The translations under genes and the position numbers were made by a program. Source: Candidatus Omnitrophota bacterium (GTDB taxonomy: Bacteria > Omnitrophota > Omnitrophia > Omnitrophales > JACROU01). Taken from it: 64,000 nucleotides of DNA. Within the stretch, counting starts at the first letter, position 1; the number at the start of each line of letters is the position of its first letter. Location: positions 66,926-130,925 of the forward strand of contig JAJDCD010000025.1 in NCBI GenBank assembly GCA_029261035.1, given 5' to 3'. The notes beneath the pieces are model-generated. The model was not told the origin of the DNA, searched no databases, and worked only from the letters and a program-made list of their open reading frames with translations. Shown here in pieces: positions 2,918 through 56,450 of this stretch.

Positions 2918-3120
2918 GCTTTATAGCGGATCCTGAATCCTAAACCAACTCCACTATCCAACGAATGCTTTTATCCCTGATAACAGTTCTTATCCATAAC
3001 AATAAATCAGGTTTCGTTATTAATACAATAACGAAACACATTAAACCAAGAAACAATATGGGCTCGACGCCCATCTTGTTTCAACCCCTCACAAACCCAC
3101 CAGCGTTGATAAATTTAAGG

Positions 3121-3196
3121 AAACTAAAATATTCCCGCCGCGAGTTGCGCAGGCCACAGGCCGAGCATGTCTGAGCGCCGGGAACATTTTAGTTTC
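3121..3196. repeat. GC-rich conserved 40-nt core, ccgcgagttgcgcaggcNNNaggccgagcatgtctgagcg, closed by a 16-bp stem. Copy 1 of 2. Candidate structured ncRNA or REP-like element.
   Basis: It is flanked by aactaaaatattcccg / cgggaacattttagtt, an inverted repeat matching at 15 of 16 positions. It is intergenic between two GT9 genes. See the second copy at 22331-22394. Confidence 0.4.
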
Positions 3197-3217
3197 CGAC
3201 AACCCAATAAAAACACC

Positions 3218-4258
3218 TTATATATGAATAACCTTCTCCACCCCAACCCGCTCAACAAGAGAATCCCCAGAACCCAACCAACCTTCCCCCTCAATCCTCT
3301 CCAAAACCCCCACTGGCGTCAAATCATCCATCATCCCCGACTCCGCCTGAATAATAAGCGTATTCCCACTCCCTCGAGGCGCCGTATCCTTATAATCCGT
3401 AGGCCCAAACAAAGCAACAACATCCGTCCCCACAGCCCCAGCCATATGCATAGGACCCGTATCACAGGTAACCACAAAACGCGCTTTCGATAAAAGAGCT
3501 CCCAACTGCCCTAAATCCGTTTCCCCCGCAAATGAAACGGGATCTGCTTTCTTCGTATGCTTAATAATACTCTCCGCTAAAACAACATCACTTTTAGACC
3601 CTATAATTACAATCGGCAATTGGTATTTCTCATAAATCAAATCTGCAAGTTCCGCAAAATAAGACGTAGACCAACGCTTCGGCTCCCAATTGGCTCCTGA
3701 ATTAAGAACAACAAAAGATTTATTTGTAGAAAAATTCTTTTCCTCTAACTTTTTTTGAATCACATCATTCTCTTCTCGAGTTGGAACAAACTCACAATAA
3801 TAATTCTTAGGAATTTCCAGACCATCTGCTCTTAAAAGGTTAACAAAATAATCTGTTTGATGCGGAGGATTCTTTGGCTGCTCAATCGCATGAGTCAAAA
3901 ACATTCTTCTTTGTTTAGACATATAAGCAACCCTCTCTTTAATCCCTGCAAGCACACACCAAAAAGCTCTAGTTTTAGAAGGATGCAAAATATACACTTT
4001 ATCAAATTTTTCTTTTCGAAGCTGCAATATCAATGAAATTTTTTCTTTAAATCCACGGTTTAGTTTTTCATTAAATACAATAATACGATCGACATAAGGA
4101 GTATGATCAAGCACCCACTGGCAAACAGGAGGGACAATACACACAATTTCACAATTAGGATCATTCTCTTTAATCAATTTAAAACAAGGTGTTTGCATAA
4201 TCACATCACCAATCCAATTCTTCGTAAAAACTAAAACTTTTCTTCTTTTCATTCCCAC
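3218..4258 (-). CDS. GT9-family LPS heptosyltransferase paralog
   Basis: 346 aa. Motifs VLVFTKNWIGDVIMQTPCF and CDTGPMHMAGAVGTDVVALFGPT. Confidence 0.7.
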   Translation of the reverse strand: MGMKRRKVLVFTKNWIGDVIMQTPCFKLIKENDPNCEIVCIVPPVCQWVLDHTPYVDRIIVFNEKLNRGFKEKISLILQLRKEKFDKVYILHPSKTRAFWCVLAGIKERVAYMSKQRRMFLTHAIEQPKNPPHQTDYFVNLLRADGLEIPKNYYCEFVPTREENDVIQKKLEEKNFSTNKSFVVLNSGANWEPKRWSTSYFAELADLIYEKYQLPIVIIGSKSDVVLAESIIKHTKKADPVSFAGETDLGQLGALLSKARFVVTCDTGPMHMAGAVGTDVVALFGPTDYKDTAPRGSGNTLIIQAESGMMDDLTPVGVLERIEGEGWLGSGDSLVERVGVEKVIHI

Positions 4259-22254: not shown

Positions 22255-22285
22255 AAAAAAGCTTAGCTCGACGCTAAGCTTTTTT
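22255..22285 (-). terminator. Intrinsic-terminator-like hairpin between ilvC and leuA
   Basis: The sequence is aaaaaa agcttagc tcgac gctaagc ttttt. It is a perfect stem with A- and T-runs on both sides, so it could act bidirectionally. Confidence 0.45.
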
Positions 22286-22330
22286 ACATTACTCCTCCTA
22301 CCCATAATTTAAGTTCCTAGGAGGAGGAAA

Positions 22331-22394
22331 GATTATCTTCCGCCGCGAGTTGCGCAGGCAGAAGGCCGAGCATGTCTGAGCGTCGGAAGGTAAT
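22331..22394. repeat. Second copy of the GC-rich conserved core with a covarying closing stem
   Basis: The core ccgcgagttgcgcaggcagaaggccgagcatgtctgagcg is flanked by gattatcttccg / cggaaggtaatc, matching at 11 of 12 positions. The core is the same as at 3137-3176 except for a 3-nt variable patch. Confidence 0.4.
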
Positions 22395-22426
22395 CTTGTC
22401 CGACGACGACCCTTGCTTAAATTCCC

Positions 22427-25946: not shown

Positions 25947-26189
25947 TCCGTAATATGAATAAATAAAAGTCTTTAAATTATCGTCAAAAAATGTTTTCCA
26001 TTAAGAAATTGTTTAACTTAGCAGAAAAGTGACACTCCTAAGGAGCCTATAAACTAGCAAGACATAAACGATGATTATAACAATGGTGTTATCATCTGTC
26101 TATAGCTTTCAGCTATCAACCGTTAGCTATTAGCTTTAGGTAATTTAAGTCCTATAACCAAAATTTTGCGGTCTCTTTAGAGAAAAGGT

Positions 26190-26223
26190 GTCATTCCCGA
26201 ATTCCTTAGTCGGGAATCCATGC
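26190..26223. repeat. Hairpin repeat of the gtcattcccga-N8-tcgggaatccatg family, copy 1
   Basis: 8-bp stem attcccga / tcgggaat. Same family as 63941-63973. Confidence 0.5.
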
Positions 26224-26285
26224 TATATAAATTTGAATAAAAAAAGGATCCTCGACACAAACATTCGGGGATGACAATTGGGAAT

Positions 26286-26327
26286 GTCATTGCAATGCAT
26301 TGGACTTTGAGCCGTGGCAATCTCAGA
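26286..26327. repeat. Solo copy of the 42-nt gtcattgcNNN...gccgtggcaatctcag element
   Basis: It has the same ends as the inverted repeats bracketing the GIY-YIG gene at 49265-49306 and 49612-49653. Confidence 0.5.
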
Positions 26328-26373
26328 CAAATGAACCTTTTCCCTAAAAGCTAAAGGCTATAATCTAATAGAC

Positions 26374-28423: not shown

Positions 28424-28506
28424 AAGATCCTTCGCTTCACTCAGGATGACAAATAAAAAATAATTTAGAAGAAAGCTTGTCATCCTGGAGTATGGGGAAG
28501 GATCTT
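28424..28506. repeat. Nested inverted-repeat element with outer stem aagatccttc / gaaggatctt and inner stem caggatgacaa / ttgtcatcctg
   Basis: It lies immediately downstream of the giant gene. A related copy is at 54994-55060. Confidence 0.5.
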
Positions 28507-28567: not shown

Positions 28568-31500
28568 TTATGCAGCTGTGAGAAGGGCTTGATACGCTTT
28601 AAAAGCTTGTTGGAGTTTACTGATTTTTTCTCTTAAGGAATTTTTAACAAAAGTAAAAACACCTCTCTTCTTATCTTTCCGAATATTGTCACGCACAGGT
28701 TTCATTAATGGATGAGACATATCCCCTTCGCTCATTCCCAACAAGAAAGCATGCGGCAATGCATAACGATTAAAATCTGCTAACTCAATACCTAAATCAC
28801 TTAACTCATTTGAAGAAGGGGTCTCTAACCTTTGGATCAACATAAGATCAATCGCACTTAATAATTCGGACGAACCTACAACGCTCAATCTACGATGAAC
28901 CATCGCCTGAGTTATATTTACACTCACTTCTTCAAAATACTGTTTTGCCAAATTTAAGATTTGAACAAAATCTTTTCCTGTTAAATAAGATTGAAAACTA
29001 TCGACTTCATCCCCTTTAAGTATAGGAATAACAAGAATTCGATCATTAATTAGCTCCCCATTTTTATCCTTCAAGAATTTTATTTTATTTTCAATCTGTT
29101 TGGCTTCTTTATTGGTTCCATAATAAAAAATTAAAGACACTGTTTTTGGATTATTCGTAAGTAATAGTGACTCCGACTCTACATCAAAGTAATCACTTGT
29201 TTTCATAACAACAGAAAAAGTCTCTGAATTCAAATCATAGGCATTAAACACACGACTTTGAGTTTCCGAAAGCACTCGATCAAAAGAAACAACCCTTGGA
29301 GATTCAGCATCCGCACTTTCAGCCGCAAAAGCTTTTGGATACCAAGAACTCATAACAAGTCTGTAAAGAGAGCTCTTCGCAGAAGAATAAAAGGACAAAG
29401 GTAAAATGCGTCCCGAAAATAACTGTGCCGTTTCTCTAACACGATCCACAACACCCAAACTTGCAGCAGAAACGTCTGCTAACTCAGGGTCATTGGAATA
29501 AATAAACCCTCCTCCAGAAGTACGATTTATAATATTTGCATGAAACACCGCTAAATCATGCTGATCTAACAAAGTATGAACTTGGTTAAAAAAAACAAAA
29601 TCTGATTTCCCAGACTCCAAATCACCTCTTGTTTTATACTTAAATGCCTGAACCCAAGCATTTACCTCTGGGTTATCAAGGTCCACTGTCACAAACTGCC
29701 AAGAGTCACTGACCCCTGGTAAAAAAGAAAATGCTTTTCTGATGTTGTTTCTCATGTCCTCAAAGTCTTTCTCCAAAGGAGTTACCGTTCTAAATCCTTC
29801 ATTAGGAATATATTTTTGAAACTTGTGCTTAAACCCATTCCACTGACCATAAACACCTCCATCTTTGTGTCTTAAGTCTATGAATGGGTAAATAATCTCC
29901 CCTCTTTTAAATGCTTCTAACACACGAGTGTCTCTATCTAAAATATTAAAATCTAAAGGAATCTCTTCTAAAGACACCCCCTCCTTTTGATACGCAGTCA
30001 TCATCAAAATTAAAATACTTAAAGGTTCTTCAAATACACCTGGACCTATTAAATCGATGGTTATTTTTTTATTTTGTTCATCGCTTTCCTTTTTCTTTCT
30101 AATCAACTCTCTTAACTTTAAATAAAAACTTTCATACTGTTTATGAGTCCTAAAAAACAACCCATACCGACCCGTTCCTTCATAATCCAAAGGAAGGGTA
30201 ACATCACTTTCTGGCTGAACCCAATACAAACTAAATTTTCCAAATTCTCTTTTATACTGGTCCATATCCTTAATTCCATTCAAATACATAAAGTACTCTC
30301 TAAAATCATCGTACCCACTAGCACGTGCAAAGCCTGACAAAGCCTTCAAAAAACTCTCTGAAAAGATGCGTCCCATATCTAATTGATGTATAAATGTTGC
30401 TCTAAAAGCTAAACTAGAAAGCATATCCGAAATCAAAACTCCATCCACACTCCCTATTCTTTTCACTAGACTCTTAGACACTTGTATTTCTCCTGTTTTA
30501 AAATCCGTTTGCTGCTGTCCCAGACTAGAAGCTCTCGAACGAGCAGCATCCATCACATCAACAACATCTTTAATTGTTTCTTTTGTATGATATGGAAGCA
30601 TAGACATCTTTACAGAATATGTTGGATCATCCTGAATTTTTAATAAATAATCATGCGGAGTCATTAAAATTAACTCTGAGTAACGAGCCATTGCAATTTT
30701 TCTGCTTTGCTCAGCAAATATTCGGACCATTCTGTCTTCAGTATATTCAGAGACCTGCTGTAAAAAATTAATTTGTTCTTTTAAGTAATCAACAAGCATA
30801 ATTAAATTCCACAAAAAAGAAGGTGTTGTTCCAGACTCACCCCAAAGCTCCCACAAATCACTATAGGGACTATCCAGTATTTCTATAAACTTATTTTTCT
30901 CAAGCAAGTCTCTAAAAGCACGTCTAGATTCAACAGAATTAACCGCTTTAATAATTCCCGCAGATGTAAATCCTGCTTTAAATAGCACTTCTTGTTTCCT
31001 CTCCAAAATTTCTCTTCTATCTTCTTCCAAATCATTATTCAAAATATTACTATTTCTATCGTACGCATCATGAGCTCTTTCCGACAATGTAGCAACAAAA
31101 TCTGTTGGAATATCAACATAAAGCAAACTTGTAACTCTAGGTAACCAACCCATTCTAACCTTTGCTTCAAAGTATTCCTCAGCAAAAAAACTTTTCCACA
31201 AAAATTGATACACCCCTTTTAAGTCGTTTACATTTAAAAGCTCTTGCTCCTTCTCTTTATTCCACCCACTATGATTCAATAATCCTTGAACCAAGCCTTC
31301 TACAAAGAACTCAAATCCATCATATTTCTCAAAATGATGCAAACTATCAACAGCAGAAACCGAAGATAATAAAGCGTCACTCACTTTCAGTTCTTTGCGC
31401 CTAGCACTTGTGAAAGGGTATTCATAAAGCATTCTAGAAGCAAAAAAGTCTGTCAAAACAAATCGTTGTCCTTGATTTATAGTTATTAATTTTTCTGGGT

Positions 31501-34500
31501 TTGTTAAGGGAATACGTCCTTGAACAAATTGATATGCCAATGCCTTTCCATAACCATAAGCAGCTTGTTGCACCCATGACTTCTCATCCTTTTTTTCTAT
31601 TAATTCTCCTTCATGAGTTGCTCGAATGGAACCTGGGCTCAACCTTAAAAGATACCCTTGTTTATTCGTTTTGTGTTCAAATTGAATACTAGCAATTACC
31701 CTAACAAGAGTCTCTTTTTCATACCCTTCTAAAGTAAAAGTCCCATATTGTTGCAAAGCATCAAATTCTCTTTTAGCCTCTCCAGCCGTCAGTCCTCCTC
31801 GAATACCTCTAAAGGAATCTTCGTAATCATAACCGCCTTCTGGAGTCCCAACCCCTTTTAATTCAAGAAAAAACTCTTGGCCATTCAACGAAAAAATCAA
31901 AGGCATTCCATTCTTTAAAACAATTCCTGTCCTCCCACCTGCACGCGTACCAATTTCAGGAGGAGTTACAGACATCAACACACTATAATCTTCCCCAATA
32001 TCTTCAGAGCTCGTAACAAGAACAGCCCCTGATAAAAAGTATTCTTTTAAGTCCTCCGGAACCATTTCCCAATCTACGGATGTTTCCATACTAACTTCAT
32101 CCATCAGAGTAAATGCGAGAGGTATTTCTTCCACAGATCTCAAATCTGTCCATTGAGCCTTAAAAGTCGCTGAGTCAGCATTTACAACATTTCTAAACTC
32201 TCTCCCTTTAGAATACACTGGTTGTATTTTTCCATCTCCATCTCTTGATAACCCAACAAGAAGATCGCCTTCCTGTCTAGCACTTTCAAACCTCTCTCTA
32301 ACCTCAGAATCTTCTACACTTTCAAGCTCGCTCAACTTCTCAGGCTCTGGCCAAAAATCGATTTTCTCACCACTATTTCGCTGCCAAATAACAAGCCCTT
32401 TCTGTAGAAGCTTACTTCCAAAATCAGAAAAAAACCTCAAGCCCCCCTCAAGCTTTTGGTAAGCTTTTGTAGGAGAACCATAAAGCTCTCTCAACATATC
32501 AAGCGTATGAACCCTTCCTTGGAGTTTGGATTCTTTGCTAAAATATTCCGACATAGTTTCGAAGTGAATCTTAGCAAAACTAATGTTAGGCCTATTAAAA
32601 GCTCCTATAAGATCTTCTATATGTCTATACGTATCTTTATGCCATTTCTTAATTCTTTGCTTTAACCTACTACGTAAAGACCAATAATCATTTTGAGGCT
32701 GCACTTCTGAAACAATTAAAACAGGATTATTAGACGCATCCCTCGATACCACGACATGCATCCAACCAATAAGACCTGGTCCCTCTGGAAAATTTTTCAA
32801 ATCCACCTCTCCCAAAACACCTCTAACCTCCTCTAAATCTTTTGTGTATTTAGTACCCTTTGAATCAACCAAAACATACACAACCAACGTTGGCTCATAA
32901 CTTTCATTAAAGAATGGGAGACGATCAATGCTTGCAGACAACTTGTATTTACCTAACTTTGAACTTTTATTAATACTCTCTTTAACTCTCTCTAAAAACC
33001 TCCAGTTCTCCAAGTAAATTGCTAAATTTCTACTTTGATCTGAATTCTCATTATTCAAACCAAGAGAAGATGCATCTACCTTACTCAACACTTTCTCTCG
33101 ACTTGCTACAACAGGAAGGTCGCCATCAGTTATTGAAGCCTGATAACTTTGATAAATCTCTTCAAAATAACTGCTATTAGAAAATAACTCAAAAACATCT
33201 TTCGATAATTTTGGATCAGAAAAAGAAAAATCAAAACCTAGCAAAACAACATTAATTAATTGCTGCACCCTTTCATCAGACAATCCTAAATGAGATAAAT
33301 TATTACTCATAGAGTCCCTTAAATAACCAGCAAACTGATTAGCAACATCAATATAAAATTGAACTTTTCCTTGATAATCAATTAAATAAAACTGTAATTC
33401 TCCCTTATGATCATCAACAACCACCTCCGCATTAGGCCATCCTCCCACCTTTTGATAGAAAGAACCTATAACCTTCCCAAACTGATAAAAGGCATTATCA
33501 AGAAAACCTTCATCCCCTAACCTTTCTCTGTTAACTAAAAGCCATTCATCAAAACTAATTCCAGGAGTATAGTCTTTGATATAAACTCTAATTGGATCTT
33601 CCTTATCAAATCCAATCTGAACAAATTGAAGAGGGCGAGTTAAGTAAGGCGTCTTTTCATAATCTTTCATACTTTCTTGGTATTCCATATACGTATGAGA
33701 ATCCGTAACAGCCCCATCCACACGATACATAAACTTGTCTGTAGCTGCCGTTAGATAAAAAACTTCATCTGGGCTTCTTAGCACAATAAGGTCCACCTTC
33801 TTATTGGACCCTTTAGCCTTACTTAAATCTATGAGCTCAATATCAAATTCGGAAAGTGGCTTGTCTGAACCTCTAAGTTCAAGAACATTTTCAAGTGTTC
33901 TTAATCCAGTTTTCTTATCCTTTACCAATAAAGCAGCCAAGATGCTTAAATGTGTGTCATGAATACCCTCTAACTCCTTATGAGAATCATAAACTTTAGT
34001 TTTAGCCAATATCTTTTCAACCTCTTCATCAAATTCAACCCGTTTAAAACGAAAGAATCTTCTCGTGCTCTCCTTAACTGATTCTTTAAATACAAGAGTC
34101 TCTTTTAATTGTTCAACACCCAATGATTGAGCCTCTGAAATCAAAGAGTCTTCCTGAGTAACCACACCTTCCTTTTCTTCTATAGACATAATCTGACTAA
34201 AGAAGTCTTTAACCACCCTTTCCATTTCGTTCTGTAACGCTAAATTATTTTGACTGTAGTGCTTATGCTGTGTTCCTTTCTGTAAAGTCACTACGTTTGA
34301 CCCTGAATCAGACCGCACTTCTGGATCAATGATAAAACGATGAGATACATTCTTCAAACCAGAGAAGGCCAAAACAAGATCCAGCTCTTTAGCAGAAGGA
34401 TCCACTGAAAAATAAACAGAACCCACCCCACTTGGAAGGCCCTTCACTTTTAAAGAAACATGCCAATCATAACCTCTCTCTAAATCAAAAAGCTTAGGAC

Positions 34501-37500
34501 CTTCATGTTCGATTTCTTCTGGTAGATTTTCTTTTTTGAACAGATCTTTAAACCTTTGAATTAAAGGAGTTGGATCAATAGGATAAATAGATGAGAAAAA
34601 GATAGCATCCGAAGCCTCTTCTGCTTCAGACAAATCTAACTCTAAATTAATTAAAGTAACTTCTTCATCCAAAGCAGGAAAGGAAATACGTCTGCTGTCC
34701 TTATCAAAAGATAATATGGGTTTAAAGGTCTTCAGAGAATCAAAAAGTCTCGCGCTCTGAGAAGGATAAATCGGCTCTTCTGATTCATATAAAACATAAT
34801 ACGTATCATCCACTAATACATAAGGGTCTAAATTTTCGGAGGTCCATATACGAGAAACATTCCCTACGTAGGCTTTACCATCAGACTGTTCTCTTAAAAA
34901 ACGATTTAACTCATATTCAAACAACAGTTCTTCAGTGCTAACATCGTCTCTTTTCATTAAAACATACTGCTTCCCATCAACATCCTCAAAACTCCAATAA
35001 ACATCGCTCAGTTTTTTTACCTGGACAAAACCTTCAATTCCAAATAAAGGCTCCACTCTCTGAATAAACTCCCCTTCAACACCTAAACTTCGGGCGGTGA
35101 AAAATTCTAAAACATCTCTATTGGGGTGCTTATTTTTAAATTCGTTACGACCTCTAAAGTTAACTCCTGTTCCAGTTAAATCAACCACCTCTAACTTTAC
35201 TAAGTTAAGTAAAGCTTCTAAGTTTCGATTCTTCACATCTCTTATTCTAGCCAAATACAGTTCCTTCAAATTAGTTAACTTGCTAATTATCTCTAAATCA
35301 CTTCCTTTTATTTGAGTCCTAGTTAGATTCAGCACTTCTAAATTTCTTAGAGCTTCTAACTGTTTTAACCCAGTTCCAGTTACCCTAGTTCCACTTAGAC
35401 GAAGTTCCTTCAGATTAGTTAATTGGATTATATCCTCAAGAGCACGATCTCCAACTTCAGAGCCTATCAAAGAGAGGGTTTTTAAATTTAGTAAATTCCT
35501 TAAATAGTTTAACCCTTCATCCATTACTTGGGTTCGATCCATTATAAGGCTTTCTAAATTCGTCAACTTTCTCAAATGTACTAACCCTTCACCCGTTACT
35601 TGCGTATCTTTTATATCAAGATTTTTCAAACTTATTAAACCACTCAAATGAGTCAGCTCTTCATTTCCAATGTCAAGTTCACTCAGATCAAGACTTCTCA
35701 AATTAGCATGTTCTTTTAAATGCCCAAGCTCTTCATTTCCAATGTCATAATAAATAAATAAAAGAAATCCTAAATTTTTTATCCCTCTTAATTTACTTAG
35801 TGAGACATTTTCAAATGGTAAGAAACCAAGTTTGATATTTAGCATTAAAGTATCTTCTTCAAAACCTACAGCTTCTCTAAATTCACCTTGTTCATATACA
35901 GAAGGATTATTCAAATCATCTAAACGACCTTTTATATCCTCTCTCACCCGTGCTTTATATTCTTCTATCACCTGTTGACCTTTTTTCGTTTCTCTTATTC
36001 GTCGTATAGCTTGTTTATGCTGCTCATGATAACTATCTGGAAAAAGGATACCTTGAGCCCACCCTCCTTCCAACACTCTCATCACTTCATCTTCTCTTCC
36101 AAGTCCTCCCAGCCTATGAAGAACCATCCCTCTCAACCCAAAATTTTCTGGGTATTCGTGCAACGCTCTCATCATTTCATTTAATCCCATATCAGGGCCT
36201 ATACCAAGGCTTTGCGCTTCTGTACTTTTAGGCTCATCTTCATCATCTGTTTCAACCCAAGAGATATTTCTATAATTTACCTCTACATCTCTTCTTGCAA
36301 GATAAATTCCTCCCGCTCCTGTCCCGACAGCAACAAGCAATAAGAGTGCGGGAATAGCTATAGGCATAGAGAATAAGAAAGAAAACAAACCTAAGGTAAA
36401 CATGTTGATTCCTAAAAAGACAATTCTTTCTCCTCGAGTAGAGCCTGGGGTCAAAGTGCTTTGTGGAAAATCAAAATCTTGAACATCCTCATCTCCTAAA
36501 CTAGCTCCCACAACAGCTCTTCGATCTCTTTCTCTATCATCAAGAATGCTTCTTTCTTCAAAAGACACATCTGACATTTCGCTTCTCAACAAATCCTGAT
36601 AATTACTCACCTGATCGAACAAAAACCAATTACGTTCTGTTGGCTTTAATCTTAATTGTTGTTCAGCTTGAGCAGCTCGATATTCCTCAAGCAATTCATC
36701 GTACTCCAACAACTCACTCTCATCTCCTTCGTAACGAAGTAATGCTGCTTGAAACATTTCGAGCAAAAGTCCTAATTTCAAGTCTAAATGCCTCAATTGC
36801 TCAATTTGATCAAAAACTTCTTTTCCCTTTTGCACAAAAAAGTTTTCTTCAAAAATATATCCACGAAGAACTTCATAAGTTGTTTTTTTCTTTTTTATTT
36901 GAATAGGTTGCCCATCTACATCTCGTGATGCTGTAGCCACTGGCATAAGCATTCTTCTTTCTTCAGACCAAACACCCGAATTGATTTCGCGAGACATTGC
37001 CCAAATAGCTGCAGTCCATAGAAAAGGAATCAAAGTCATCAGGATACTAAAAATAGAAAAAATAGTTGCGTTTTGAATTGCCGCATCCGGGCCAGGGCCA
37101 ACAATAAATGAATGAATACCTATAGGAAGCAAAGAAAATGGCATATATTGAAATAAAAACTTCGTGAAAAAATCTTGAAAAAGTACAATTCGGTTCGCAT
37201 GTCGTTCAGGGTTTTGAACAGCAGACACAAAAGAGTATAATTGAGAAGACATGGCACTATAAGCATCCCCTGCACTTCCTCCATAGGCTCCGTGCCAAGC
37301 AAAGATTTCATCCGCCTCTTTTCTGTAAGATTTTCCTAAAGCACGAATATCTTTTATGACTTGTTTTACAGCTTCATTCCGATCAGAAGAAAGGTTCGGA
37401 TTAGAAAAAATATTCGCCACTTCACTTACTGCCACTGAGCGTTTTTGTATCGACCTCATGGATGGAAGCAGCATAATAAGTGCTGTTGCAAATACATTCC

Positions 37501-40500
37501 TATGGGGAGGCGGAATATTCGTATTAATAGCAGCATCCCTCAGAATAAGCACCGCTTTTTTGCGGTTGCCAATGTAGCCCTCCCGTCTCATCAGTGCAAC
37601 AATAACTTCCGCAGCCTGCTGCACCTGTCCTTCTGTATATAACCGCCATGCATCATCAAATTCTAAAGCAGGTTCTTGAGATCGCAATTCTTCTTTCCCC
37701 AAACTCGCTCCTTCAATTTGACGATCATCTTTTTTCTTCTTTTTCTTAAGCTTTATACTTAGCTTTTCTGGAGTTTCTGATATGTCTGGGGTTGTTGAGA
37801 TGGAAAAACCCAAACTTGAAAATCGAATAGAAAGCTGATCTTTATAACTCTCTATTTGAGCTTGCATCCTTGGGCTCTCAGTTTGAAACTCATCTAGAAA
37901 CTCATGAAATCCCTGTACATCTTGAATAATTCGATTTTTTAAATTAAGATTATCGAAATCATCTGCATATTTAAAAATAAGGGATGCAATTTCATTTAGT
38001 AAAATTAACCTTGAGTCTAAACTGTCCAGATATTCAAATTGACTCAATAAATATTTGCGTGACTGTTTATCGTTAAATAAAGATTTTTCTGATTCCCATA
38101 TCAACCTTCTAACATGGCTTACAATGTCACGATCAGCTAATTTGTTTTGATCAAAGAGCTCCTCACGAAGCTCTCTTCTTTCTCTTATTTTATTGAATAC
38201 TTTTTTAAGAGTCCCAACAATGACAATAAGAGAAACAAAAGATATCAATACATTGATATTAAAATGAGATGTGTAAAATCGATGAGGATTAACGTCGAAA
38301 AAAGAATGGTAAATGCTAACTAAAGGAATAATAGCAATCACCCAAGCAAAACTCGCCACTAATGCAAGACCTTCTATTTCATTAAAATCCCTATTTCTAT
38401 AAACTGTCAAAGGATCTTCTATTAAATGCTCTGTCTCAAAGATGAAATCGGATGTAAGATAATACTTTTGCTTATCATCTTCTTTTCTAATTGAGTAATT
38501 AAAACGATCTGTATTCTCCTGCATCAAATAAGTCCTCAATAAACGCTTCGCATCTAACCCATATTCTGAATTTGTTAAAATTTCAGCATACTGATCAATT
38601 TCTTCTCTCGATTGAGAAATTACGCCTTTCATCCCTTCTGTTGCTAAAATAAGCTCAACATAATAACGAGCTACACTTCTTCTCTTCTTTCTGTCTTTAT
38701 AGTAATACAGATGATGACTGTGCAAATATTCAATTATTTCTCTTTGATAAATATTTTCTGCTGGCAATGGCCTATATTCCAAAAGCAAATCCAAAGCTTC
38801 TCCATGACGTTGTGCTTCTCTTAAAGACCGGTGTCTAACAGCCAATTTATTTGCTTCATCATCTGTTAAATCCACACTAACTCTTTCTTTTGGATCAGAT
38901 CTGTCTGAATAATCAAACGGAAATTCATCTTTGGAAAACTGCTTACCCAAACTCGCACCTTCTAGCTGACGGTCATCTCTTACTTTTCCAGTTTTAGAAT
39001 CTTCTGCAATTGGAGGGGCGGAAATATCTCTTTGAATATCTGGAAATGGAATATCAGGAAATTGTTGAATTAAGAATTCCCGCAGGTTTTTAGATTGGTC
39101 TTTGATGGGCTCCGACACGGAACTTATTTCTGTTAAAAATTGATAAAAGGCTACAATTTCATTATTGAGCCACTCTACCAACAATGGGTTTTCTTTTTCT
39201 TCCGAATATTTAATGACGGCTGCTGCTAATTCATTCAGCAAATAAATTTGAGCATCCGTGGTTCTCAGTTTTTCAAATTGAAGTTTAATGTATTGACGAT
39301 GTTTTTCATCATTAAAGAAATAGCTGTCTGTTGTCCATAACTTCTTATTAACTGCCTTAACAATTTCTTGATCACTCTCACCTAAAGATTCAAAAAGAAT
39401 TTGGTTCTGAAGTTCTAGATAATTAAGATCTTTTCCTCTGTTTTTATCCAACATCATTCTAAAAATAGCAATTAAAGATATGATTGGAATTAAAATGGCA
39501 ACTCCTCCAAGAACATAATCCGATATCTGAGAAGCCTCTAGCAAAACACGAGTGCCTAAGGTAATAAAAATTGCTGGCATTGGAACAAGTATCCAATTTT
39601 GTTTTCTGAAAATTACATTAAAAATTGAAGGGTTTCCAATTTCTTCCAAGTAAGCTTGAGGATCTAAAATCATTCTAGAAGCATGTTCTGCATCTCGTGC
39701 TGTTTTATAATAAGGCCCAGCAGGTCCTGAACCATATTGACCACCACCCCACTCAACATACTCCTTATACTTTTGGGCGCCTTGCTCATTTAGTTCTTTT
39801 GAAAGCTGTTTCAATAGATTTGAAGCTGTTTCCGCTGAAACAGCAGACGAGATTAGATCAACCATTTTGTCTTGAAGGTCCCAATCATCAAATTTAGATT
39901 CTACACCTGGCAACAATTGAATAAAAAACTTAGCTGCTTTTCTTCGAATTTGCACAGGTTGTGTTTGATCAAACAGCAATGGATAAACTAAATCAAAACT
40001 TTGTTTTCGATATTCATCATTATCGGGTAATATTCCTGGAGAACGCGCTAATAGAATATGAATCATCTTTTCATAAAAACCCAATTGAAATAAACCCTTA
40101 GCTTGAGTCAATCGATTTCTAGCATCTTCGATACCTGCTACGGATAACCTTTCATCAAAACCAAACTGCCTTTCAGTAAGTGGCGAGTTTCCCATAATAG
40201 AGCGTCGACGAGACACTTCCTCTCCAGCCGCACCAGGATCAAAATCACGCCATTTAAGCCACATCTGCTCTGTATCTACAACTGTCAAATCCAAAGGCTC
40301 TGGATGCTTTTCATAAATCTGTCTAATTTCTTCTCGAGATACTGGAGTCTGGTAAAAACTAACATGCAATAAATTCTCCATACCTTCAATCAAACTAATG
40401 TCTACCGACTCTAAACCATCTAGATTTAAATCAATCTCTTCTTTCCATTCATTCAGAATAACTCTCTTATCCCACTCCTCTTCTAGTCCATTGACTCTTA

Positions 40501-42574
40501 AAATTTCTCTTACCCTCTCTTTATCTTTTTCATAAGATCCTAATGATTGGGCCAAAACAGCTTCTTCGCTCAACGGTTGGGTTTGGTTTTTGTTTACAAC
40601 AAAGGTAGGGCGAATAATCACAGCTTCTTGGATAGGGATTAGAATAGACTGATTTGTCAGTCCCAAGCTTATCTCTACACCTTTTTTATCAGAAGAATCT
40701 TCCAAACCTGTTTGATAATTCACAGTCAAATCTGCTTGTTTAAAAAGAACATTGGATTCCAAATAGCGACTTATATTTTGAACTAAAACTTCTGTATTGT
40801 TTCTTAAATTTGGATTTAAAGATAATTCGCGCTCAATCAGAATATTTAAAAGATCAATCACAGCATCAACAAGCATTTCCACTTGCCTTTTTTCATCTCC
40901 TCCTAAAAGTTGAATTTGTTTCAGATCCCCTACCATCCCAAGCACTTTTTGAATTTGGGAGGTATCAAAAATAGTTTTACTCATTCCCATAACAGACTGG
41001 TGATACTTCTCGTGACCAAACTCCGTTTGGATTTGAGGCTGAACTCCAACATAAGATATGTTTTTATCCTTAATCAATTCTGCTAATCCTTCGGAATGAA
41101 AACCTCCCGTAATTAAGATGGCTTTTTCTTGTTTCATTTGTTTCATTTGTTTTTGAAGTTGCTCAAATAAAGCTTTATTACGTTCTTCGGCTAATCGGTA
41201 GAACTCGATAGCATTCTTATAGACAGGTTTAAATGTTTTTTGATTTTCTAAAAGAGTTCCCAAATCTCTTTCTTCTTGGTTTGAGAGTTGCAGAAGACGA
41301 TCCGTCAACTTACGCACATCTCCATTCAAACCTTTCCAATCAGAGTATGACAATTCAAAAGCAATCAATTTCTTAAATAAATTCAAATCCTCACTCAGCT
41401 TAATTAAAATCTGTTCATTTTCGTTCTTAGATAAAAATTCATATAAATTTCTACTTAATTGGTTCATTTCATTAAAAAACTCAGGACCTGTAATTTCGCT
41501 CTGAAGAATGAAGTGTTCTGAAAACTTTCTTAAATTTTTATACGCTGAAAGATCTATTTGAGCCTGCAAACTTGCTTCATAAATAAACTGAAAGAATTCT
41601 CGGGGAGCTTTTCCTGTCGTTTCGTAAAGTCGTGTCACCAAAGATTGGTTGATCTGATTTCGTTTTGTAATGGACGTTAGCCCTCGAATCAGATGCTGCT
41701 TATCCCGCTCATCAAAAACTCGTTCTCTCATCAGATGAATTAGTTGTGTTACTTCCTTCTGGAGACCCTCATCATCTAACTCTCGTTCTCTATCTTGAAC
41801 ACGAAGCATTCGACACAGAAAGGGATATTCTTTTTGGTTTAAGGGTGAGGTCAATTCTATATTAAGAAACTCTTCTGCTTTTTTTTCTAAATAAGAGATA
41901 AATTGAATGAGTTCGATTTGTTTATTCTGATATTGCAGAACTTTTTTATCAAATTTTAATAACTCGGGATTGTAAATACGCGATTTTAAAATATTCAGTT
42001 CTCGGTCAAAAGAATCAAAAAAGGGTTTTGCTTCTTCTTTGGTTTGAAGGCCTTTACGGAACAAAGTGTAATCCTCTCGGTAAAGGTCTGTTTTTTCAAC
42101 TCCTTCAAAAAAGATACCTTCATAATCTTTTAGCCCTTCAGATATTTCCAAAGCAAAAAGTTCTCCACCTGTAACCTCCCCCTTCTGAGCTAAGGCGTCT
42201 GCTACCTTCATATTAATATCTGCATAAGGAAAAAAGTGATAACTACGAGGATCTAACGAAGAGGACGCTCCTTCTAAACCAATTAACTGATAATCATGTT
42301 CACGGACTAAGTAATCTAAAATACTTTGGATATTTTTCTGTGCTTCATAGTTCGCATGAGCATCTTGAATATGAACAATCACTTTTTCGGAGTCTGCAGG
42401 AATAACTTCTTTGACTGTACCTAGTTGTTGAGGTAAGGAGAGTTGAAGAGCACTTTGAGACACACTTTTTACGTTTAGCGACAATAGCCCCTCTGGAACA
42501 GACCATGCCACTGTAGTTGTCGTAAAGCAAATAAGCACAAAACTAGCTATAAACCTCAAGTATTTAAAACCCAA
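28568..42574 (-). CDS. Giant secreted and membrane-associated multi-module protein of 4668 aa, function unknown. It has a signal peptide, a conserved N-terminal domain, at least 4 TM segments, an LRR block and nine A-x-S-L-G module boundaries.
   Basis: A single uninterrupted ORF. The TTG start has an AAGGGAG RBS 7 nt upstream. The signal peptide is MGFKYLRFIASFVLICFTTTTVAWS. The LRR block is at DNA ~35155-35800. Confidence 0.85.
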   Translation of the reverse strand: MGFKYLRFIASFVLICFTTTTVAWSVPEGLLSLNVKSVSQSALQLSLPQQLGTVKEVIPADSEKVIVHIQDAHANYEAQKNIQSILDYLVREHDYQLIGLEGASSSLDPRSYHFFPYADINMKVADALAQKGEVTGGELFALEISEGLKDYEGIFFEGVEKTDLYREDYTLFRKGLQTKEEAKPFFDSFDRELNILKSRIYNPELLKFDKKVLQYQNKQIELIQFISYLEKKAEEFLNIELTSPLNQKEYPFLCRMLRVQDRERELDDEGLQKEVTQLIHLMRERVFDERDKQHLIRGLTSITKRNQINQSLVTRLYETTGKAPREFFQFIYEASLQAQIDLSAYKNLRKFSEHFILQSEITGPEFFNEMNQLSRNLYEFLSKNENEQILIKLSEDLNLFKKLIAFELSYSDWKGLNGDVRKLTDRLLQLSNQEERDLGTLLENQKTFKPVYKNAIEFYRLAEERNKALFEQLQKQMKQMKQEKAILITGGFHSEGLAELIKDKNISYVGVQPQIQTEFGHEKYHQSVMGMSKTIFDTSQIQKVLGMVGDLKQIQLLGGDEKRQVEMLVDAVIDLLNILIERELSLNPNLRNNTEVLVQNISRYLESNVLFKQADLTVNYQTGLEDSSDKKGVEISLGLTNQSILIPIQEAVIIRPTFVVNKNQTQPLSEEAVLAQSLGSYEKDKERVREILRVNGLEEEWDKRVILNEWKEEIDLNLDGLESVDISLIEGMENLLHVSFYQTPVSREEIRQIYEKHPEPLDLTVVDTEQMWLKWRDFDPGAAGEEVSRRRSIMGNSPLTERQFGFDERLSVAGIEDARNRLTQAKGLFQLGFYEKMIHILLARSPGILPDNDEYRKQSFDLVYPLLFDQTQPVQIRRKAAKFFIQLLPGVESKFDDWDLQDKMVDLISSAVSAETASNLLKQLSKELNEQGAQKYKEYVEWGGGQYGSGPAGPYYKTARDAEHASRMILDPQAYLEEIGNPSIFNVIFRKQNWILVPMPAIFITLGTRVLLEASQISDYVLGGVAILIPIISLIAIFRMMLDKNRGKDLNYLELQNQILFESLGESDQEIVKAVNKKLWTTDSYFFNDEKHRQYIKLQFEKLRTTDAQIYLLNELAAAVIKYSEEKENPLLVEWLNNEIVAFYQFLTEISSVSEPIKDQSKNLREFLIQQFPDIPFPDIQRDISAPPIAEDSKTGKVRDDRQLEGASLGKQFSKDEFPFDYSDRSDPKERVSVDLTDDEANKLAVRHRSLREAQRHGEALDLLLEYRPLPAENIYQREIIEYLHSHHLYYYKDRKKRRSVARYYVELILATEGMKGVISQSREEIDQYAEILTNSEYGLDAKRLLRTYLMQENTDRFNYSIRKEDDKQKYYLTSDFIFETEHLIEDPLTVYRNRDFNEIEGLALVASFAWVIAIIPLVSIYHSFFDVNPHRFYTSHFNINVLISFVSLIVIVGTLKKVFNKIRERRELREELFDQNKLADRDIVSHVRRLIWESEKSLFNDKQSRKYLLSQFEYLDSLDSRLILLNEIASLIFKYADDFDNLNLKNRIIQDVQGFHEFLDEFQTESPRMQAQIESYKDQLSIRFSSLGFSISTTPDISETPEKLSIKLKKKKKKDDRQIEGASLGKEELRSQEPALEFDDAWRLYTEGQVQQAAEVIVALMRREGYIGNRKKAVLILRDAAINTNIPPPHRNVFATALIMLLPSMRSIQKRSVAVSEVANIFSNPNLSSDRNEAVKQVIKDIRALGKSYRKEADEIFAWHGAYGGSAGDAYSAMSSQLYSFVSAVQNPERHANRIVLFQDFFTKFLFQYMPFSLLPIGIHSFIVGPGPDAAIQNATIFSIFSILMTLIPFLWTAAIWAMSREINSGVWSEERRMLMPVATASRDVDGQPIQIKKKKTTYEVLRGYIFEENFFVQKGKEVFDQIEQLRHLDLKLGLLLEMFQAALLRYEGDESELLEYDELLEEYRAAQAEQQLRLKPTERNWFLFDQVSNYQDLLRSEMSDVSFEERSILDDRERDRRAVVGASLGDEDVQDFDFPQSTLTPGSTRGERIVFLGINMFTLGLFSFLFSMPIAIPALLLLVAVGTGAGGIYLARRDVEVNYRNISWVETDDEDEPKSTEAQSLGIGPDMGLNEMMRALHEYPENFGLRGMVLHRLGGLGREDEVMRVLEGGWAQGILFPDSYHEQHKQAIRRIRETKKGQQVIEEYKARVREDIKGRLDDLNNPSVYEQGEFREAVGFEEDTLMLNIKLGFLPFENVSLSKLRGIKNLGFLLFIYYDIGNEELGHLKEHANLRSLDLSELDIGNEELTHLSGLISLKNLDIKDTQVTGEGLVHLRKLTNLESLIMDRTQVMDEGLNYLRNLLNLKTLSLIGSEVGDRALEDIIQLTNLKELRLSGTRVTGTGLKQLEALRNLEVLNLTRTQIKGSDLEIISKLTNLKELYLARIRDVKNRNLEALLNLVKLEVVDLTGTGVNFRGRNEFKNKHPNRDVLEFFTARSLGVEGEFIQRVEPLFGIEGFVQVKKLSDVYWSFEDVDGKQYVLMKRDDVSTEELLFEYELNRFLREQSDGKAYVGNVSRIWTSENLDPYVLVDDTYYVLYESEEPIYPSQSARLFDSLKTFKPILSFDKDSRRISFPALDEEVTLINLELDLSEAEEASDAIFFSSIYPIDPTPLIQRFKDLFKKENLPEEIEHEGPKLFDLERGYDWHVSLKVKGLPSGVGSVYFSVDPSAKELDLVLAFSGLKNVSHRFIIDPEVRSDSGSNVVTLQKGTQHKHYSQNNLALQNEMERVVKDFFSQIMSIEEKEGVVTQEDSLISEAQSLGVEQLKETLVFKESVKESTRRFFRFKRVEFDEEVEKILAKTKVYDSHKELEGIHDTHLSILAALLVKDKKTGLRTLENVLELRGSDKPLSEFDIELIDLSKAKGSNKKVDLIVLRSPDEVFYLTAATDKFMYRVDGAVTDSHTYMEYQESMKDYEKTPYLTRPLQFVQIGFDKEDPIRVYIKDYTPGISFDEWLLVNRERLGDEGFLDNAFYQFGKVIGSFYQKVGGWPNAEVVVDDHKGELQFYLIDYQGKVQFYIDVANQFAGYLRDSMSNNLSHLGLSDERVQQLINVVLLGFDFSFSDPKLSKDVFELFSNSSYFEEIYQSYQASITDGDLPVVASREKVLSKVDASSLGLNNENSDQSRNLAIYLENWRFLERVKESINKSSKLGKYKLSASIDRLPFFNESYEPTLVVYVLVDSKGTKYTKDLEEVRGVLGEVDLKNFPEGPGLIGWMHVVVSRDASNNPVLIVSEVQPQNDYWSLRSRLKQRIKKWHKDTYRHIEDLIGAFNRPNISFAKIHFETMSEYFSKESKLQGRVHTLDMLRELYGSPTKAYQKLEGGLRFFSDFGSKLLQKGLVIWQRNSGEKIDFWPEPEKLSELESVEDSEVRERFESARQEGDLLVGLSRDGDGKIQPVYSKGREFRNVVNADSATFKAQWTDLRSVEEIPLAFTLMDEVSMETSVDWEMVPEDLKEYFLSGAVLVTSSEDIGEDYSVLMSVTPPEIGTRAGGRTGIVLKNGMPLIFSLNGQEFFLELKGVGTPEGGYDYEDSFRGIRGGLTAGEAKREFDALQQYGTFTLEGYEKETLVRVIASIQFEHKTNKQGYLLRLSPGSIRATHEGELIEKKDEKSWVQQAAYGYGKALAYQFVQGRIPLTNPEKLITINQGQRFVLTDFFASRMLYEYPFTSARRKELKVSDALLSSVSAVDSLHHFEKYDGFEFFVEGLVQGLLNHSGWNKEKEQELLNVNDLKGVYQFLWKSFFAEEYFEAKVRMGWLPRVTSLLYVDIPTDFVATLSERAHDAYDRNSNILNNDLEEDRREILERKQEVLFKAGFTSAGIIKAVNSVESRRAFRDLLEKNKFIEILDSPYSDLWELWGESGTTPSFLWNLIMLVDYLKEQINFLQQVSEYTEDRMVRIFAEQSRKIAMARYSELILMTPHDYLLKIQDDPTYSVKMSMLPYHTKETIKDVVDVMDAARSRASSLGQQQTDFKTGEIQVSKSLVKRIGSVDGVLISDMLSSLAFRATFIHQLDMGRIFSESFLKALSGFARASGYDDFREYFMYLNGIKDMDQYKREFGKFSLYWVQPESDVTLPLDYEGTGRYGLFFRTHKQYESFYLKLRELIRKKKESDEQNKKITIDLIGPGVFEEPLSILILMMTAYQKEGVSLEEIPLDFNILDRDTRVLEAFKRGEIIYPFIDLRHKDGGVYGQWNGFKHKFQKYIPNEGFRTVTPLEKDFEDMRNNIRKAFSFLPGVSDSWQFVTVDLDNPEVNAWVQAFKYKTRGDLESGKSDFVFFNQVHTLLDQHDLAVFHANIINRTSGGGFIYSNDPELADVSAASLGVVDRVRETAQLFSGRILPLSFYSSAKSSLYRLVMSSWYPKAFAAESADAESPRVVSFDRVLSETQSRVFNAYDLNSETFSVVMKTSDYFDVESESLLLTNNPKTVSLIFYYGTNKEAKQIENKIKFLKDKNGELINDRILVIPILKGDEVDSFQSYLTGKDFVQILNLAKQYFEEVSVNITQAMVHRRLSVVGSSELLSAIDLMLIQRLETPSSNELSDLGIELADFNRYALPHAFLLGMSEGDMSHPLMKPVRDNIRKDKKRGVFTFVKNSLREKISKLQQAFKAYQALLTAA

Positions 42575-42664
42575 TAGGACACTCCCTTTTTTAATAAGTT
42601 TAATATGTATTTAGCTTCTTTACAAGATTTATACTGCTATATATAGGGATACAACCCTATCCAT

Positions 42665-42708
42665 GTCCCAAAAGTGACAGTCACCTTGGTGACAGTCACT
42701 TTTGGGAC
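42665..42708. promoter_or_regulatory. 44-bp near-perfect palindrome with two GTGACaGTCAC half-palindromes 15 bp apart. Candidate operator upstream of the giant gene, or a uvrB 3' hairpin.
   Basis: The sequence is gtcccaaaagtgacagtcacc ttg gtgacagtcacttttgggac. The 21-bp arms have 1 mismatch. It sits about 90 bp upstream of the TTG start at 42574, next to the AT-rich tatatatagcagtataaat. Confidence 0.4.
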
Positions 42709-42718
42709 ACACATTCAG

Positions 42719-44785: not shown

Positions 44786-44847
44786 TCATTTCTTCCTTAT
44801 AAGCTGTCACCCTCGACTTGATCGGGGGTCCAGAAAAATGAAACTGG

Positions 44848-44867
44848 ATTCCCGCCTCCGCGGGAAT
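44848..44867 (-). terminator. Hairpin attcccgc-ctcc-gcgggaat downstream of nadC. A possible terminator and a member of the cgggaatcca hairpin family.
   Basis: 8-bp GC-rich stem with a 4-nt loop. On the minus strand a T-rich tract (ccagtttcattttt) follows it. Confidence 0.35.
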
Positions 44868-44875
44868 AACAATGT

Positions 44876-49180: not shown

Positions 49181-49264
49181 ATTTTACTTAATAGTGAGTC
49201 AAATGTCTGAGATTACTTCGTCGGCATTTAATTCAACTCCTCGTAATGACAATCTCTCTGAGTC

Positions 49265-49653
49265 CGTCATTGCGAGCATCAACAAAAGATGCGTGGCAAT
49301 CTCAGGAGTAATGGTTATAAAGTTTCGTAAAGATCATTAAATTCTGGATTAAACTTTTGAATTAACTCTAATTTCTTTTTTCTCGATCCTGCTTTTATTT
49401 GCTTTTCCCTCTCTATTGCAGTTCTAATATCATCTGCTACTTCAAAGTAAATTAACTTATCCAAGTTATACTTTTTAGAAAAACCATCAGTGAGCTTTTT
49501 CTTATGCTCAAAAATTCTTTTCTTAAGATCGCTGGTAACACCCGTATAGATTGTAGTGTTGTTCTTATTTGTTAAGAAGTATATATAACCTGATTCATCC
49601 ATTTTTCTATGCCTGAGATTGCCGCGGCCTTTTTGTCGCTACCTCGCAATGAC
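49265..49653. mobile_element. Candidate miniature mobile element: a GIY-YIG nuclease gene bracketed by 42-bp terminal inverted repeats
   Basis: Left arm, 49265-49306: gtcattgcgag-N14-gcgtggcaatctcagg. Right arm, 49612-49653, is the inverted gtcattgcgag-N14-gccgcggcaatctcagg. Both ctcagg ends face the ORF. Solo copies of the arm occur at 26286, 56561 and 57815. Confidence 0.45.
49315..49602 (-). CDS. Small GIY-YIG (URI-domain) nuclease of the UPF0213/COG2827 type
   Basis: 95 aa. Begins GYIYFLTNKNNTTIYTGVTSDLKKRIFEH, where GxIY...YTG is the GIY-YIG core. It is the size of stand-alone URI nucleases. Confidence 0.75.
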   Translation of the reverse strand: MDESGYIYFLTNKNNTTIYTGVTSDLKKRIFEHKKKLTDGFSKKYNLDKLIYFEVADDIRTAIEREKQIKAGSRKKKLELIQKFNPEFNDLYETL

Positions 49654-51243: not shown

Positions 51244-51296
51244 AATATCCTTTGTTTACTAGCGGTCAGCGTAAAGCGTTTAGCGAATAGGTTATC

Positions 51297-51333
51297 AAAC
51301 CCTCACCCTAGGCCTCTCCCTATCAGGGAGAGG
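51297..51333. repeat. Element aaaccctcacc-N5-cctctccct-atc-agggagagg. It contains a perfect 9-bp-arm palindrome and is nested inside an 11-bp inverted repeat.
   Basis: Flanking inverted repeat agcgtttagcg (51275-85) / cgctaaacgct (51358-68). A second copy in the opposite orientation is at 56451-56487. Confidence 0.45.
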
Positions 51334-51378
51334 GAAATAGCTTTTCTATACGCTCCACGCTAAACGCTCTACGCTAAT

Positions 51379-54915: not shown

Positions 54916-54993
54916 TCTTTTTCCTTTGTTTATAGCTATCAGCTTTTAGCCATTAGCCGGACAATCTTTTCAAACTGTCTTCCTGAGTGTAAC

Positions 54994-56379: not shown

Positions 56380-56450
56380 AAGTTAAACACACTAATATAC
56401 TCAAAAATAACCCTACAGTAAAGGGGTAAAAGGTAAATTTAGGAACTTTC

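Follow-up and report, generated by a model that had tools for sequence, protein, structure and literature searches.

What are the short hairpins that recur in the longer intergenic spacers of the right half of a 64-kb stretch of Omnitrophota genome, and is there a protein that acts on them? The stretch, called the window below, comprises 64,000 nucleotides of a Candidatus Omnitrophota bacterium (assembly GCA_029261035.1, contig JAJDCD010000025.1, positions 66,926 to 130,925), and coordinates are counted from its first letter. A sequence-only reading had described the hairpins as a mosaic family built around a TGTCAT/ATGACA core, and had proposed recombining modules of the repetitive extragenic palindrome (REP) or MITE (miniature inverted-repeat transposable element) type that share a protein-binding determinant. 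Judging from the sequence, we conclude that the repeats are very probably Ssn-related motifs (SRMs) of the CGTC/TGTC-tagged REP superfamily, accompanied in the window by a gene for an Ssn-type nuclease. The system is already described in kind, and the Omnitrophota example extends the Ssn/SRM pairing.

We curated 15 oriented elements, all lying between 26.2 and 64 kb. When the spacers and repeats are listed together, the sub-families a, b and d that the sequence-only reading had kept apart turn out to share a single oriented plan: first an unpaired (T/C)GTC head, then a stem with AT at its start and its end (the first two pairs being A-T and T-A), a variable interior that forms either a loop or an inner stem, and a C(C/T) tail. 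The full GTC-A head is found in 13 of the 15 copies, the exceptions being those at 44846 (GTT) and 54977 (GTCTT), and its letters read TGTC in 11 copies, CGTC in two, GGTC in one and a degenerate TGTT in one. The stem starts with AT in 13 copies (AC at 44806 and TT at 54977), and a C stands directly after the stem in every one of the 15. The sequences quoted in the earlier reading were all present where it had placed them. Its further motif c, a set of ATGACAAAT... tails, is also real and marks where, in inverted dimers, the AT-rich spacer begins behind the tail of the repeat.

The copies fall into three stem classes. Class a, with the stem ATTCCCGA or a near variant, has an 8-bp stem, a 9-nt loop and a CCA tail, and accounts for five copies. 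The first, at 26190-26219 (+), reads GTC|ATTCCCGA-loop9-TCGGGAAT|CC and forms the left arm of an inverted dimer with heads outward (26190-26275), of which the copy at 26246-26275 (-), with a ATCCCCGA/TCGAGGAT stem and one C.A mismatch, is the right arm. The variant at 44806-44831 (+), with a GTCAC head and a ACCCTCGA/TCGGGGGT stem, is the left arm of another heads-outward pair, and at 44846-44870 (-) lies a copy resembling the Neisseria dRS3/NTS repeat, ATTCCCGC-GGAG-GCGGGAAT|CC; its head is a degenerate GTTAT and its loop has 4 nt. The fifth, at 63941-63970 (+), is followed by ATGACAAATTGAATA, the spacer start noted as tail c, and is probably the left arm of a dimer whose partner falls beyond the end of the window. 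Classes b and d have a 5-bp outer stem, interiors of 7-19 nt and CT or CTC tails.

Class b (stem ATCCTGA...AGGAT) has four copies. Two of them form a heads-inward pair just downstream of a 4668-aa gene, namely 28425-28450 (-), which reads GTC|ATCCTGAG...GAAGGAT|CT and lies on the left, and 28479-28505 (+), an N8 variant, on the right; the other two are the left and right arms of the heads-outward dimer 54977-55056, at 54977-55002 (+, GTCTT head) and 55031-55056 (-). Class d (stem ATTGCGAG...GCAAT) has six. A degenerate solo copy, GTC|ATTGC AAT...GTG GCAAT|CTC, lies at 26286-26324 (+), and further solo copies lie at 56561-56599 (+) and at 57792-57830 (+), the latter with a GGTC head and a ATTGAGAG stem, just downstream of a 1986-aa gene. 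A variant reading ATTACGAG...GTAAT|C, at 49211-49250 (-), stands head-to-head with the copy at 49266-49303 (+); that copy and the sixth, at 49615-49653 (-), flank the nuclease gene. In all, the window contains three heads-outward (tail-to-tail) dimers and two heads-inward or head-to-head pairs. The window has about 37% G+C, its large open reading frames (ORFs) are all on the minus strand and its GC skew is negative throughout; in the three solo copies and in the copy at 63941 the head strand is the C-rich plus strand.

Could such likeness arise by chance among AT-rich intergenic palindromes? The genome is poor in G+C, short palindromes are frequent in its spacers and 404 inverted pairs were listed in the window, all of which would favor that explanation. 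We therefore counted matches to explicit patterns against shuffled sequence. The class a pattern GTCATTCCCGA-N9-TCGGGAATCC occurs at 26190-26219 and 63941-63970, with a three-mismatch relative at 26246-26275 (-), which makes three matches where 100 dinucleotide shuffles gave an expectation of 0.00. The same expectation was obtained for the class b pattern GTCATCCTGA-N7-GAAGGATCT, found three times (28425-28450 (-), 54977-55002 (+) and 55031-55056 (-)), and for the class d pattern GTCATTGCGAG-N19-GGCAATCTC, found four times (26286, 49615 (-), 56561 and 57792). Sub-families a, b and d of the earlier reading are thus genuine repeats. The ATTCCCGC-CTCC-GCGGGAAT palindrome is present at 44848-44867, and class d gains the copies at 49266 (+) and, with the ATTACGAG stem, at 49211-49250 (-).

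A general rule covering all classes (GTCAT, a perfect 5-bp stem starting from AT, then C) gave 12 matches in the window against a mean of 1.39 and a maximum of 5 in 200 shuffles, and 10 of the 12 are curated intergenic copies. This rule and the class patterns replaced two scanners: a looser one (GTCAT plus seven pairs), which was swamped by chance matches in AT-rich coding DNA and set aside, and a stricter one (eight pairs, at least three of them G-C), which returned only five matches. TGTCAT itself is concentrated in non-coding DNA, with 11 of its 41 copies there for 2.4 expected (about 4.6-fold, p = 2e-5). The elements are also unevenly placed: among spacers of 75 nt or more, 9 of the 11 beyond 25.9 kb contain one and none of the nine in the left 26 kb does (Fisher p = 3e-4). 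The shuffle counts exclude chance similarity as an explanation, and the same elements recur in a syntenic relative and across many phyla, as described below; we regard its probability as negligible.

The protein partner is suggested by the gene between the class d copies at 49266 and 49615. This gene, ssn (49315-49602, -), encodes a 95-aa single-domain GIY-YIG nuclease (Pfam PF01541, E 1.3e-15, residues 5-77). It is the sole GIY-YIG gene of the 64-kb window, where no other ssn copy was found. The two class d copies bracket it in inverted orientation: the 5' copy (49615-49653, -) has the orientation of ssn and its tail ends 12 nt before the ATG, and the 3' copy (49266-49303, +) is inverted relative to ssn, with its cGTC head pointing away from the gene. 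The protein matches the 94-aa SsnA orthologue of N. gonorrhoeae by tblastn (E 8e-17, 40.7% identity; the published limit for Ssn homologues is E < 1e-10, PMC11893778) and by pairwise BLASTP (2e-28, 41% identity over 86 aa), and its Y8, Y19 and E66 align with the catalytic Y6, Y17 and E64 of the gonococcal protein, whose ORF carries these residues as SsnA does in the published description. A 3.3-kb stretch around gonococcal ssnA contains nine canonical NTS copies. This canonical locus came from one of two PLSDB entries, NZ_CP119140.1 and NZ_CP119142.1, which are 2.17-Mb N. gonorrhoeae chromosomes filed as plasmids. A PDB sequence search gave no match and NCBIfam gave sub-threshold matches only, and public data hold more than 4,000 homologues at 55-74% identity.

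Both halves of this arrangement have precedents. The CGTC-tagged REP superfamily was defined by Di Nocera, De Gregorio and Rocco (BMC Genomics 2013), who noted that the tag is often TGTC and described stems of 8-9 bp whose first pairs are A-T and T-A, loops of 4-5 nt and CCA tails; Neisseria dRS3 and Rickettsia RPE-4 and RPE-6 are members, and the repeats apparently had no dedicated transposase (PMC3733652). Chenal et al. (Nat Commun 2025) then reported that SsnA, a 94-aa GIY-YIG protein (cd10448), binds the extended dRS3, called NTS (CGTCATTCCCGCGMAVGCGGGAATCYRG), and that the ssnA gene usually has the layout NTS-ssnA-NTS (PMC11893778). SsnA acts on single-stranded DNA only and in one orientation, cutting a few nucleotides upstream of the motif, and it does not use duplex DNA, the complementary strand or RNA as a substrate; cutting is governed by the three bases that precede the palindrome, binding by the C that follows it (PMC11893778). 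This biochemistry was shown for Neisseria and Wolbachia enzymes, and in N. meningitidis SsnA lowers transformation by NTS-bearing DNA (PMC11893778). We had considered the link between a GIY-YIG gene and these hairpins as unpublished, and dropped the idea since that study describes Ssn together with dRS3.

The positions that stay invariant across the three stem classes of the window (GTC, AT...AT and C) are those singled out by SsnA mutagenesis. The resemblance to the Ssn/SRM system extends to a single-domain GIY-YIG protein of 94-95 aa with the same Tyr/Tyr/Glu spacing, a gene with inverted hairpin repeats on its 5' and 3' sides, repeats made of an oriented GTC head, a palindrome that begins with AT and a C that follows it, and many solo copies and dimers in non-random intergenic clusters, some of them by genes for very large, possibly surface, proteins. 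The differences are the host, Omnitrophota here as opposed to Neisseria or Wolbachia; the cognate stem, which in the window is ATTGCGAG/GCAAT, enclosing an internal GA/GNG loop and an inner stem that varies, instead of ATTCCCGCG; and the presence of at least three stem classes beside a single ssn in 64 kb. With the CGTC-tagged REPs the window shares the unpaired CGTC/TGTC tag, the A-T and T-A first pairs, the CCA tail of class a, the dimers and the intergenic location, and the copy at 44846-44870 fits dRS3 exactly (ATTCCC-N8-GGGAAT) in stem, loop and tail. Unlike the superfamily as described, in which dimers are mostly head-to-head, the window has tail-to-tail dimers at least as often (three against two), and the outer stems of classes b and d span 5 bp around long or structured interiors, compared with 8-9 bp; the 2013 description also came without an associated enzyme.

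The pairing of motif and gene is not confined to this genome. We took 80 homologous loci from species-representative genomes and counted the 73 that have at least 150 nt of flank on both sides. The loci span Omnitrophota, Spirochaetes, Nitrospirae, Planctomycetes, the Candidate Phyla Radiation (CPR/Patescibacteria), Firmicutes, Bacteroidota, Chloroflexi, Actinomycetota, Elusimicrobia, Melainabacteria and Proteobacteria. The motif GTCATTGCGA (at most one mismatch) was found in gene orientation within 200 nt upstream at 59 of the 73 loci, inverted within 200 nt downstream at 57, and on both sides at 52, for a background rate of 0.024 per 200 nt. The distance between head and ATG had its mode at 42-52 nt, that between stop and head at 25-50 nt. 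In lineages with a different stem, the two flanks of the gene have a matching variant: GTCATGCTGAACTT at locus L064, ATTACGAG at L014, ATCCCGAG in Legionella, ATT(T/C)CGA in Nitrosomonas and ATTCTGA at L055 and L078. At L042 a class-b-like copy (GTCATCCTGAG...GAAGGATCTCC) adjoins ssn. At some loci (L032, L036) the ssn frame continues through the downstream inverted SRM and gains tails such as ...DLDCHGAKAPRNDG; repeat-encoded peptides like these extensions are often seen in spurious small ORFs.

The same collection allowed us to ask whether the class d hairpin is real. We aligned 44 copies from other genomes with five window copies (49 sequences). The outer 5-bp stem ATTGC/GCAAT is invariant and the internal loop GA // G(A/T/C)(A/G) is conserved, and four pairs of the inner stem show compensatory changes, for example at columns 12/27 (CG 19, GC 13, UA 2) and 14/25 (CG 16, GC 13, AU 6, UA 4); a hand-picked subset gave the same picture. 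These changes argue that the class d hairpin is real, and primary sequence is conserved as well, beyond structure. When folded as single-stranded DNA, the class a copies and those at 44806 and 44846 form strong hairpins of -7 to -9 kcal/mol with z scores of -3 to -4: -7.1 kcal/mol (z -3.3) at 26190, -7.3 (z -3.0) at 44806, -9.2 (z -4.2) at 44846 and -8.0 (z -3.6) at 63941. A scan of the whole window against Rfam at gathering thresholds returned no match.

The best named matches of the window ValRS place the source in Omnitrophota. We further compared the window with a syntenic relative that was sampled twice, as the near-identical strains L082 (from a JGI metagenome) and L083 (from ENA). The relative has ssn at the same locus, between a citramalate-synthase-like gene (cimA) and valS. 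Its Ssn is 74% identical to that of the window, as is its ValRS; equal divergence of the two proteins at a fixed locus argues for vertical inheritance of ssn. The repeats in neighboring spacers behave differently. The spacer between pgm and AK is 30 nt long and empty in the window, and in L082 it is 131 nt long with a heads-outward dimer; the spacer between hom and thrC has the class b dimer in the window, and in L082 three copies that belong to other classes. Dimers with heads outward, about 80-100 nt long and composed of repeat, AT-rich spacer and inverted repeat, align between the window and L082. Between ssn and valS, the relative has an SRM array with a 57-nt tandem period, with four units in L082 and two in L083, a difference between near-identical strains that points to rapid change in copy number by slippage or recombination. 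Head-to-tail class d arrays were seen at 10370-10600 of L082 and 10370-10490 of L083, and also upstream of ssn at L019, where three units follow a 39-nt period. The spacer differences fit turnover or mobility, without showing a mechanism.

Several observations weigh against the identification as SRMs or against what follows from it. The published SRM string, HGTCWYN(0-2)YYVSBRHN(0-5)WNVSBRGN(0-2)RNCYNB, matches none of the 15 copies and nothing in the window (0.11 in shuffles), and it cannot match the ATTGCGAG class at all. The window loops of 7-19 nt exceed the 4-5 nt described for CGTC-tagged REPs, and nearest-neighbor DNA fold energies of classes b and d are weak and unremarkable. The window contains one ssn for at least three stem classes, which leaves classes a and b with no partner gene in it. 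Finally, orthologous spacers have diverged too far for clean insertion junctions or target-site duplications to be recognized. The string does find the nine NTS of the gonococcal locus and a few motifs in other loci. It was hand-built from 29 genomes, and the mismatch comes from the longer loops and different stem letters of the window copies, so we take it as a limit of the string and do not count it against membership.

Oriented short hairpins, their inverted dimers and a small nuclease gene set between inverted repeats would also be expected of GTAG-type REP/REPIN or IS200/IS605-related hairpins mobilized by a REP-associated tyrosine transposase (RAYT) of the Y1 HUH type, a layout known as the REPtron. 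The head in the window is (T/C)GTC and not GTAG, though, and the flanked gene is GIY-YIG and not Y1_Tnp; the 15 window ORFs that were scanned are housekeeping genes or a Fic/HTH pair, and Di Nocera et al. saw no RAYT beside CGTC repeats (PMC3733652). Mobilization by a RAYT is therefore highly unlikely. The sequence-only reading's view of the family as REP or MITE modules holds in that these are REP-like intergenic repeats, some of them arranged as MITE-like inverted dimers, but there is no evidence of recombination between modules, and several stem classes that keep the same functionally constrained positions are a simpler explanation than a mosaic of recombining parts.

Two further explanations do without a dedicated nuclease. 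The repeats could act in RNA, as intrinsic terminators or as 3' hairpins that stabilize mRNA, a role that the sequence-only reading had suggested checking. Many copies do lie just downstream of genes, such as those at 28425-28505 (4668-aa gene) and 57792 (1986-aa gene), and REPs elsewhere can stabilize transcripts (PMC3733652). Yet no element has a T-tract and none was called terminator-like; terminator and promoter predictions were no more numerous than in shuffles and showed no consistent overlap with the repeats. The elements occur in both orientations, with the 49615-49653 copy immediately upstream of a start codon, classes b and d fold weakly while sequence, not structure alone, is conserved across phyla, and SsnA does not bind RNA (PMC11893778). 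A function of this kind is improbable. Alternatively, the repeats could be duplex-DNA operators for a transcription factor that reads TTGTCAT, as had been proposed from the shared core. That core is indeed conserved and enriched in intergenic DNA. It always comes, however, together with a stem and a C tail in fixed orientation, it is found upstream of genes but also where gene ends converge or run in the same direction, it flanks a nuclease gene in many phyla, and the duplex form is unbound in the studied Ssn system (PMC11893778). The proposal thus survives in part: the TGTCAT core would belong to the recognition determinant, given the bases that govern cutting and binding by SsnA (PMC11893778), and a duplex-DNA transcription factor is a very improbable reader of it.

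Do the SRM dimers move? A role in mobility, by analogy with insertion sequence elements and with REP/RAYT, was offered for Ssn as a hypothesis only (PMC11893778), and we add to it that ssn diverges at the rate of ValRS while the repeats of neighboring spacers turn over. The difference in repeat content between orthologous spacers suggests that the dimers might act as non-autonomous elements of the REPIN/MITE type. REPtrons offer a parallel: there too a small nuclease gene, single-copy, syntenic and to all appearance inherited vertically, stands between inverted copies of a short hairpin, and this hairpin is spread through intergenic DNA as singlets and as inverted dimers; they differ in that the REPtron enzyme is an HUH Y1 transposase with a covalent intermediate, as opposed to a hydrolytic GIY-YIG nuclease, and in the tag, GTAG instead of GTC. 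That heads-outward SRM dimers are non-autonomous, REPIN-like mobile elements which a single-copy Ssn, inherited vertically, copies or maintains is a tentative proposal that we consider possible but rather doubtful. If it were true, it would amount to a second system of a domesticated nuclease with a hairpin population, built on GIY-YIG instead of HUH and present across most bacterial phyla, and the ATTGCGAG class, unmatched by the published SRM string, would be its most widespread form.

Two very large ORFs occupy 28568-42574 (-; 4668 aa, weak LRR matches) and 57893-63853 (-; 1986 aa, no Pfam match), and the orthologous region of the relative (L082 13663 onward) is occupied by a gene whose product has at least 3900-7300 aa. 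The 4668-aa gene has SRMs on one side and the 1986-aa gene on both, and in L082 they are found upstream of the giant gene. This placement is reminiscent of Neisseria, where NTS cluster around genes for surface proteins, with three cases only here. An overlapping pair of HTH (163 aa) and Fic/DOC (201 aa) genes at 56609-57690 (-), probably a toxin-antitoxin module, is bracketed by the class d SRMs at 56561 and 57792.

The window also contains repeats outside the SRM family. An element of about 130 nt occurs at 3060-3200 and 22260-22400, one copy lying between two heptosyltransferase genes and one between ilvC and leuA. It comprises a small hairpin with an identical TCGAC loop and differing stems (ATGGGC/GCCCAT versus GCTTAGC/GCTAAGC) and, about 45 nt further on, a long outer stem of differing letters around a 47-nt G+C-rich core that is 91% identical (CCGCCGCGAGTTGCGCAGGC...AGGCCGAGCATGTCTGAGCG). 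The earlier reading had counted this GC-rich element (3118-3197 and 22330-22400) in the family by its attcccg/cgggaa arms; the letters are present at 3131-3184, but the second copy has different arms, and with neither a GTC head nor a C tail the element is not an SRM and was rejected as a member. Rfam gave no match to it at gathering thresholds across the window and nothing relevant at E <= 1 for 2900-3300, and it could be an unrecognized structured RNA or another repeat family.

A 40-nt repeat, AAACCCTCACCC...CCTCTCCCT-loop-AGGGAGAGG, lies at 51297-51336 and inverted at 56447-56486, the two copies being 83% complementary; the first lies at the center of a larger, imperfect palindrome (51244-51378) built from short repeats of the (A/T)AGCG type, and its place in the orthologous L082 spacer is taken by another repeat, of the GCGAATTGCG type. 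A nearly perfect palindrome of 22+22 nt (TGTCCCAAAAGTGACAGTCACC / GGTGACAGTCACTTTTGGGACA, 42664-42709), located upstream of the 4668-aa gene, may be an operator or another repeat, and a related GTGACAGTCAC-type sequence lies upstream of the giant gene of the relative (L082 13420-13470). Short periodic GCT/AGC repeats (for example TATAGCTTTCAGCTATCAACCGTTAGCTATTAGC) were seen on the gene strand just upstream of several start codons, at 26100-26140, 51254-51285 and 54930-54960.

Returning to the SRMs, the studied enzymes suggest how the system might work. By analogy with Neisseria and Wolbachia, the head strand would fold into its hairpin when the DNA is single-stranded, and Ssn would bind the hairpin and nick a few bases 5' of the head. 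The window Ssn would act on the class d copies, which flank its gene, and the class a and b copies most likely either serve other Ssn paralogues encoded elsewhere in the genome or are cross-recognized. The heads-outward inverted dimers look like gene-less versions of the cassette. In the cell, cutting of single-stranded DNA that bears the motif may modulate recombination or DNA uptake around the flanked genes, as the transformation phenotype of N. meningitidis would suggest.

The most conspicuous intergenic repeats of the window thus find an explanation, and are tied to a gene for which routine annotation would give no more than "GIY-YIG nuclease family protein"; the biology here holds nothing unexpected for the Ssn family. 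The ATTGCGAG-type motif flanks most close homologues of the window Ssn in many phyla, and since the published SRM pattern misses this type, surveys that use the pattern undercount the system. Each pair of Ssn and motif is a potential sequence-specific cutter of single-stranded DNA, so that new specificities may be of some practical value in biotechnology.

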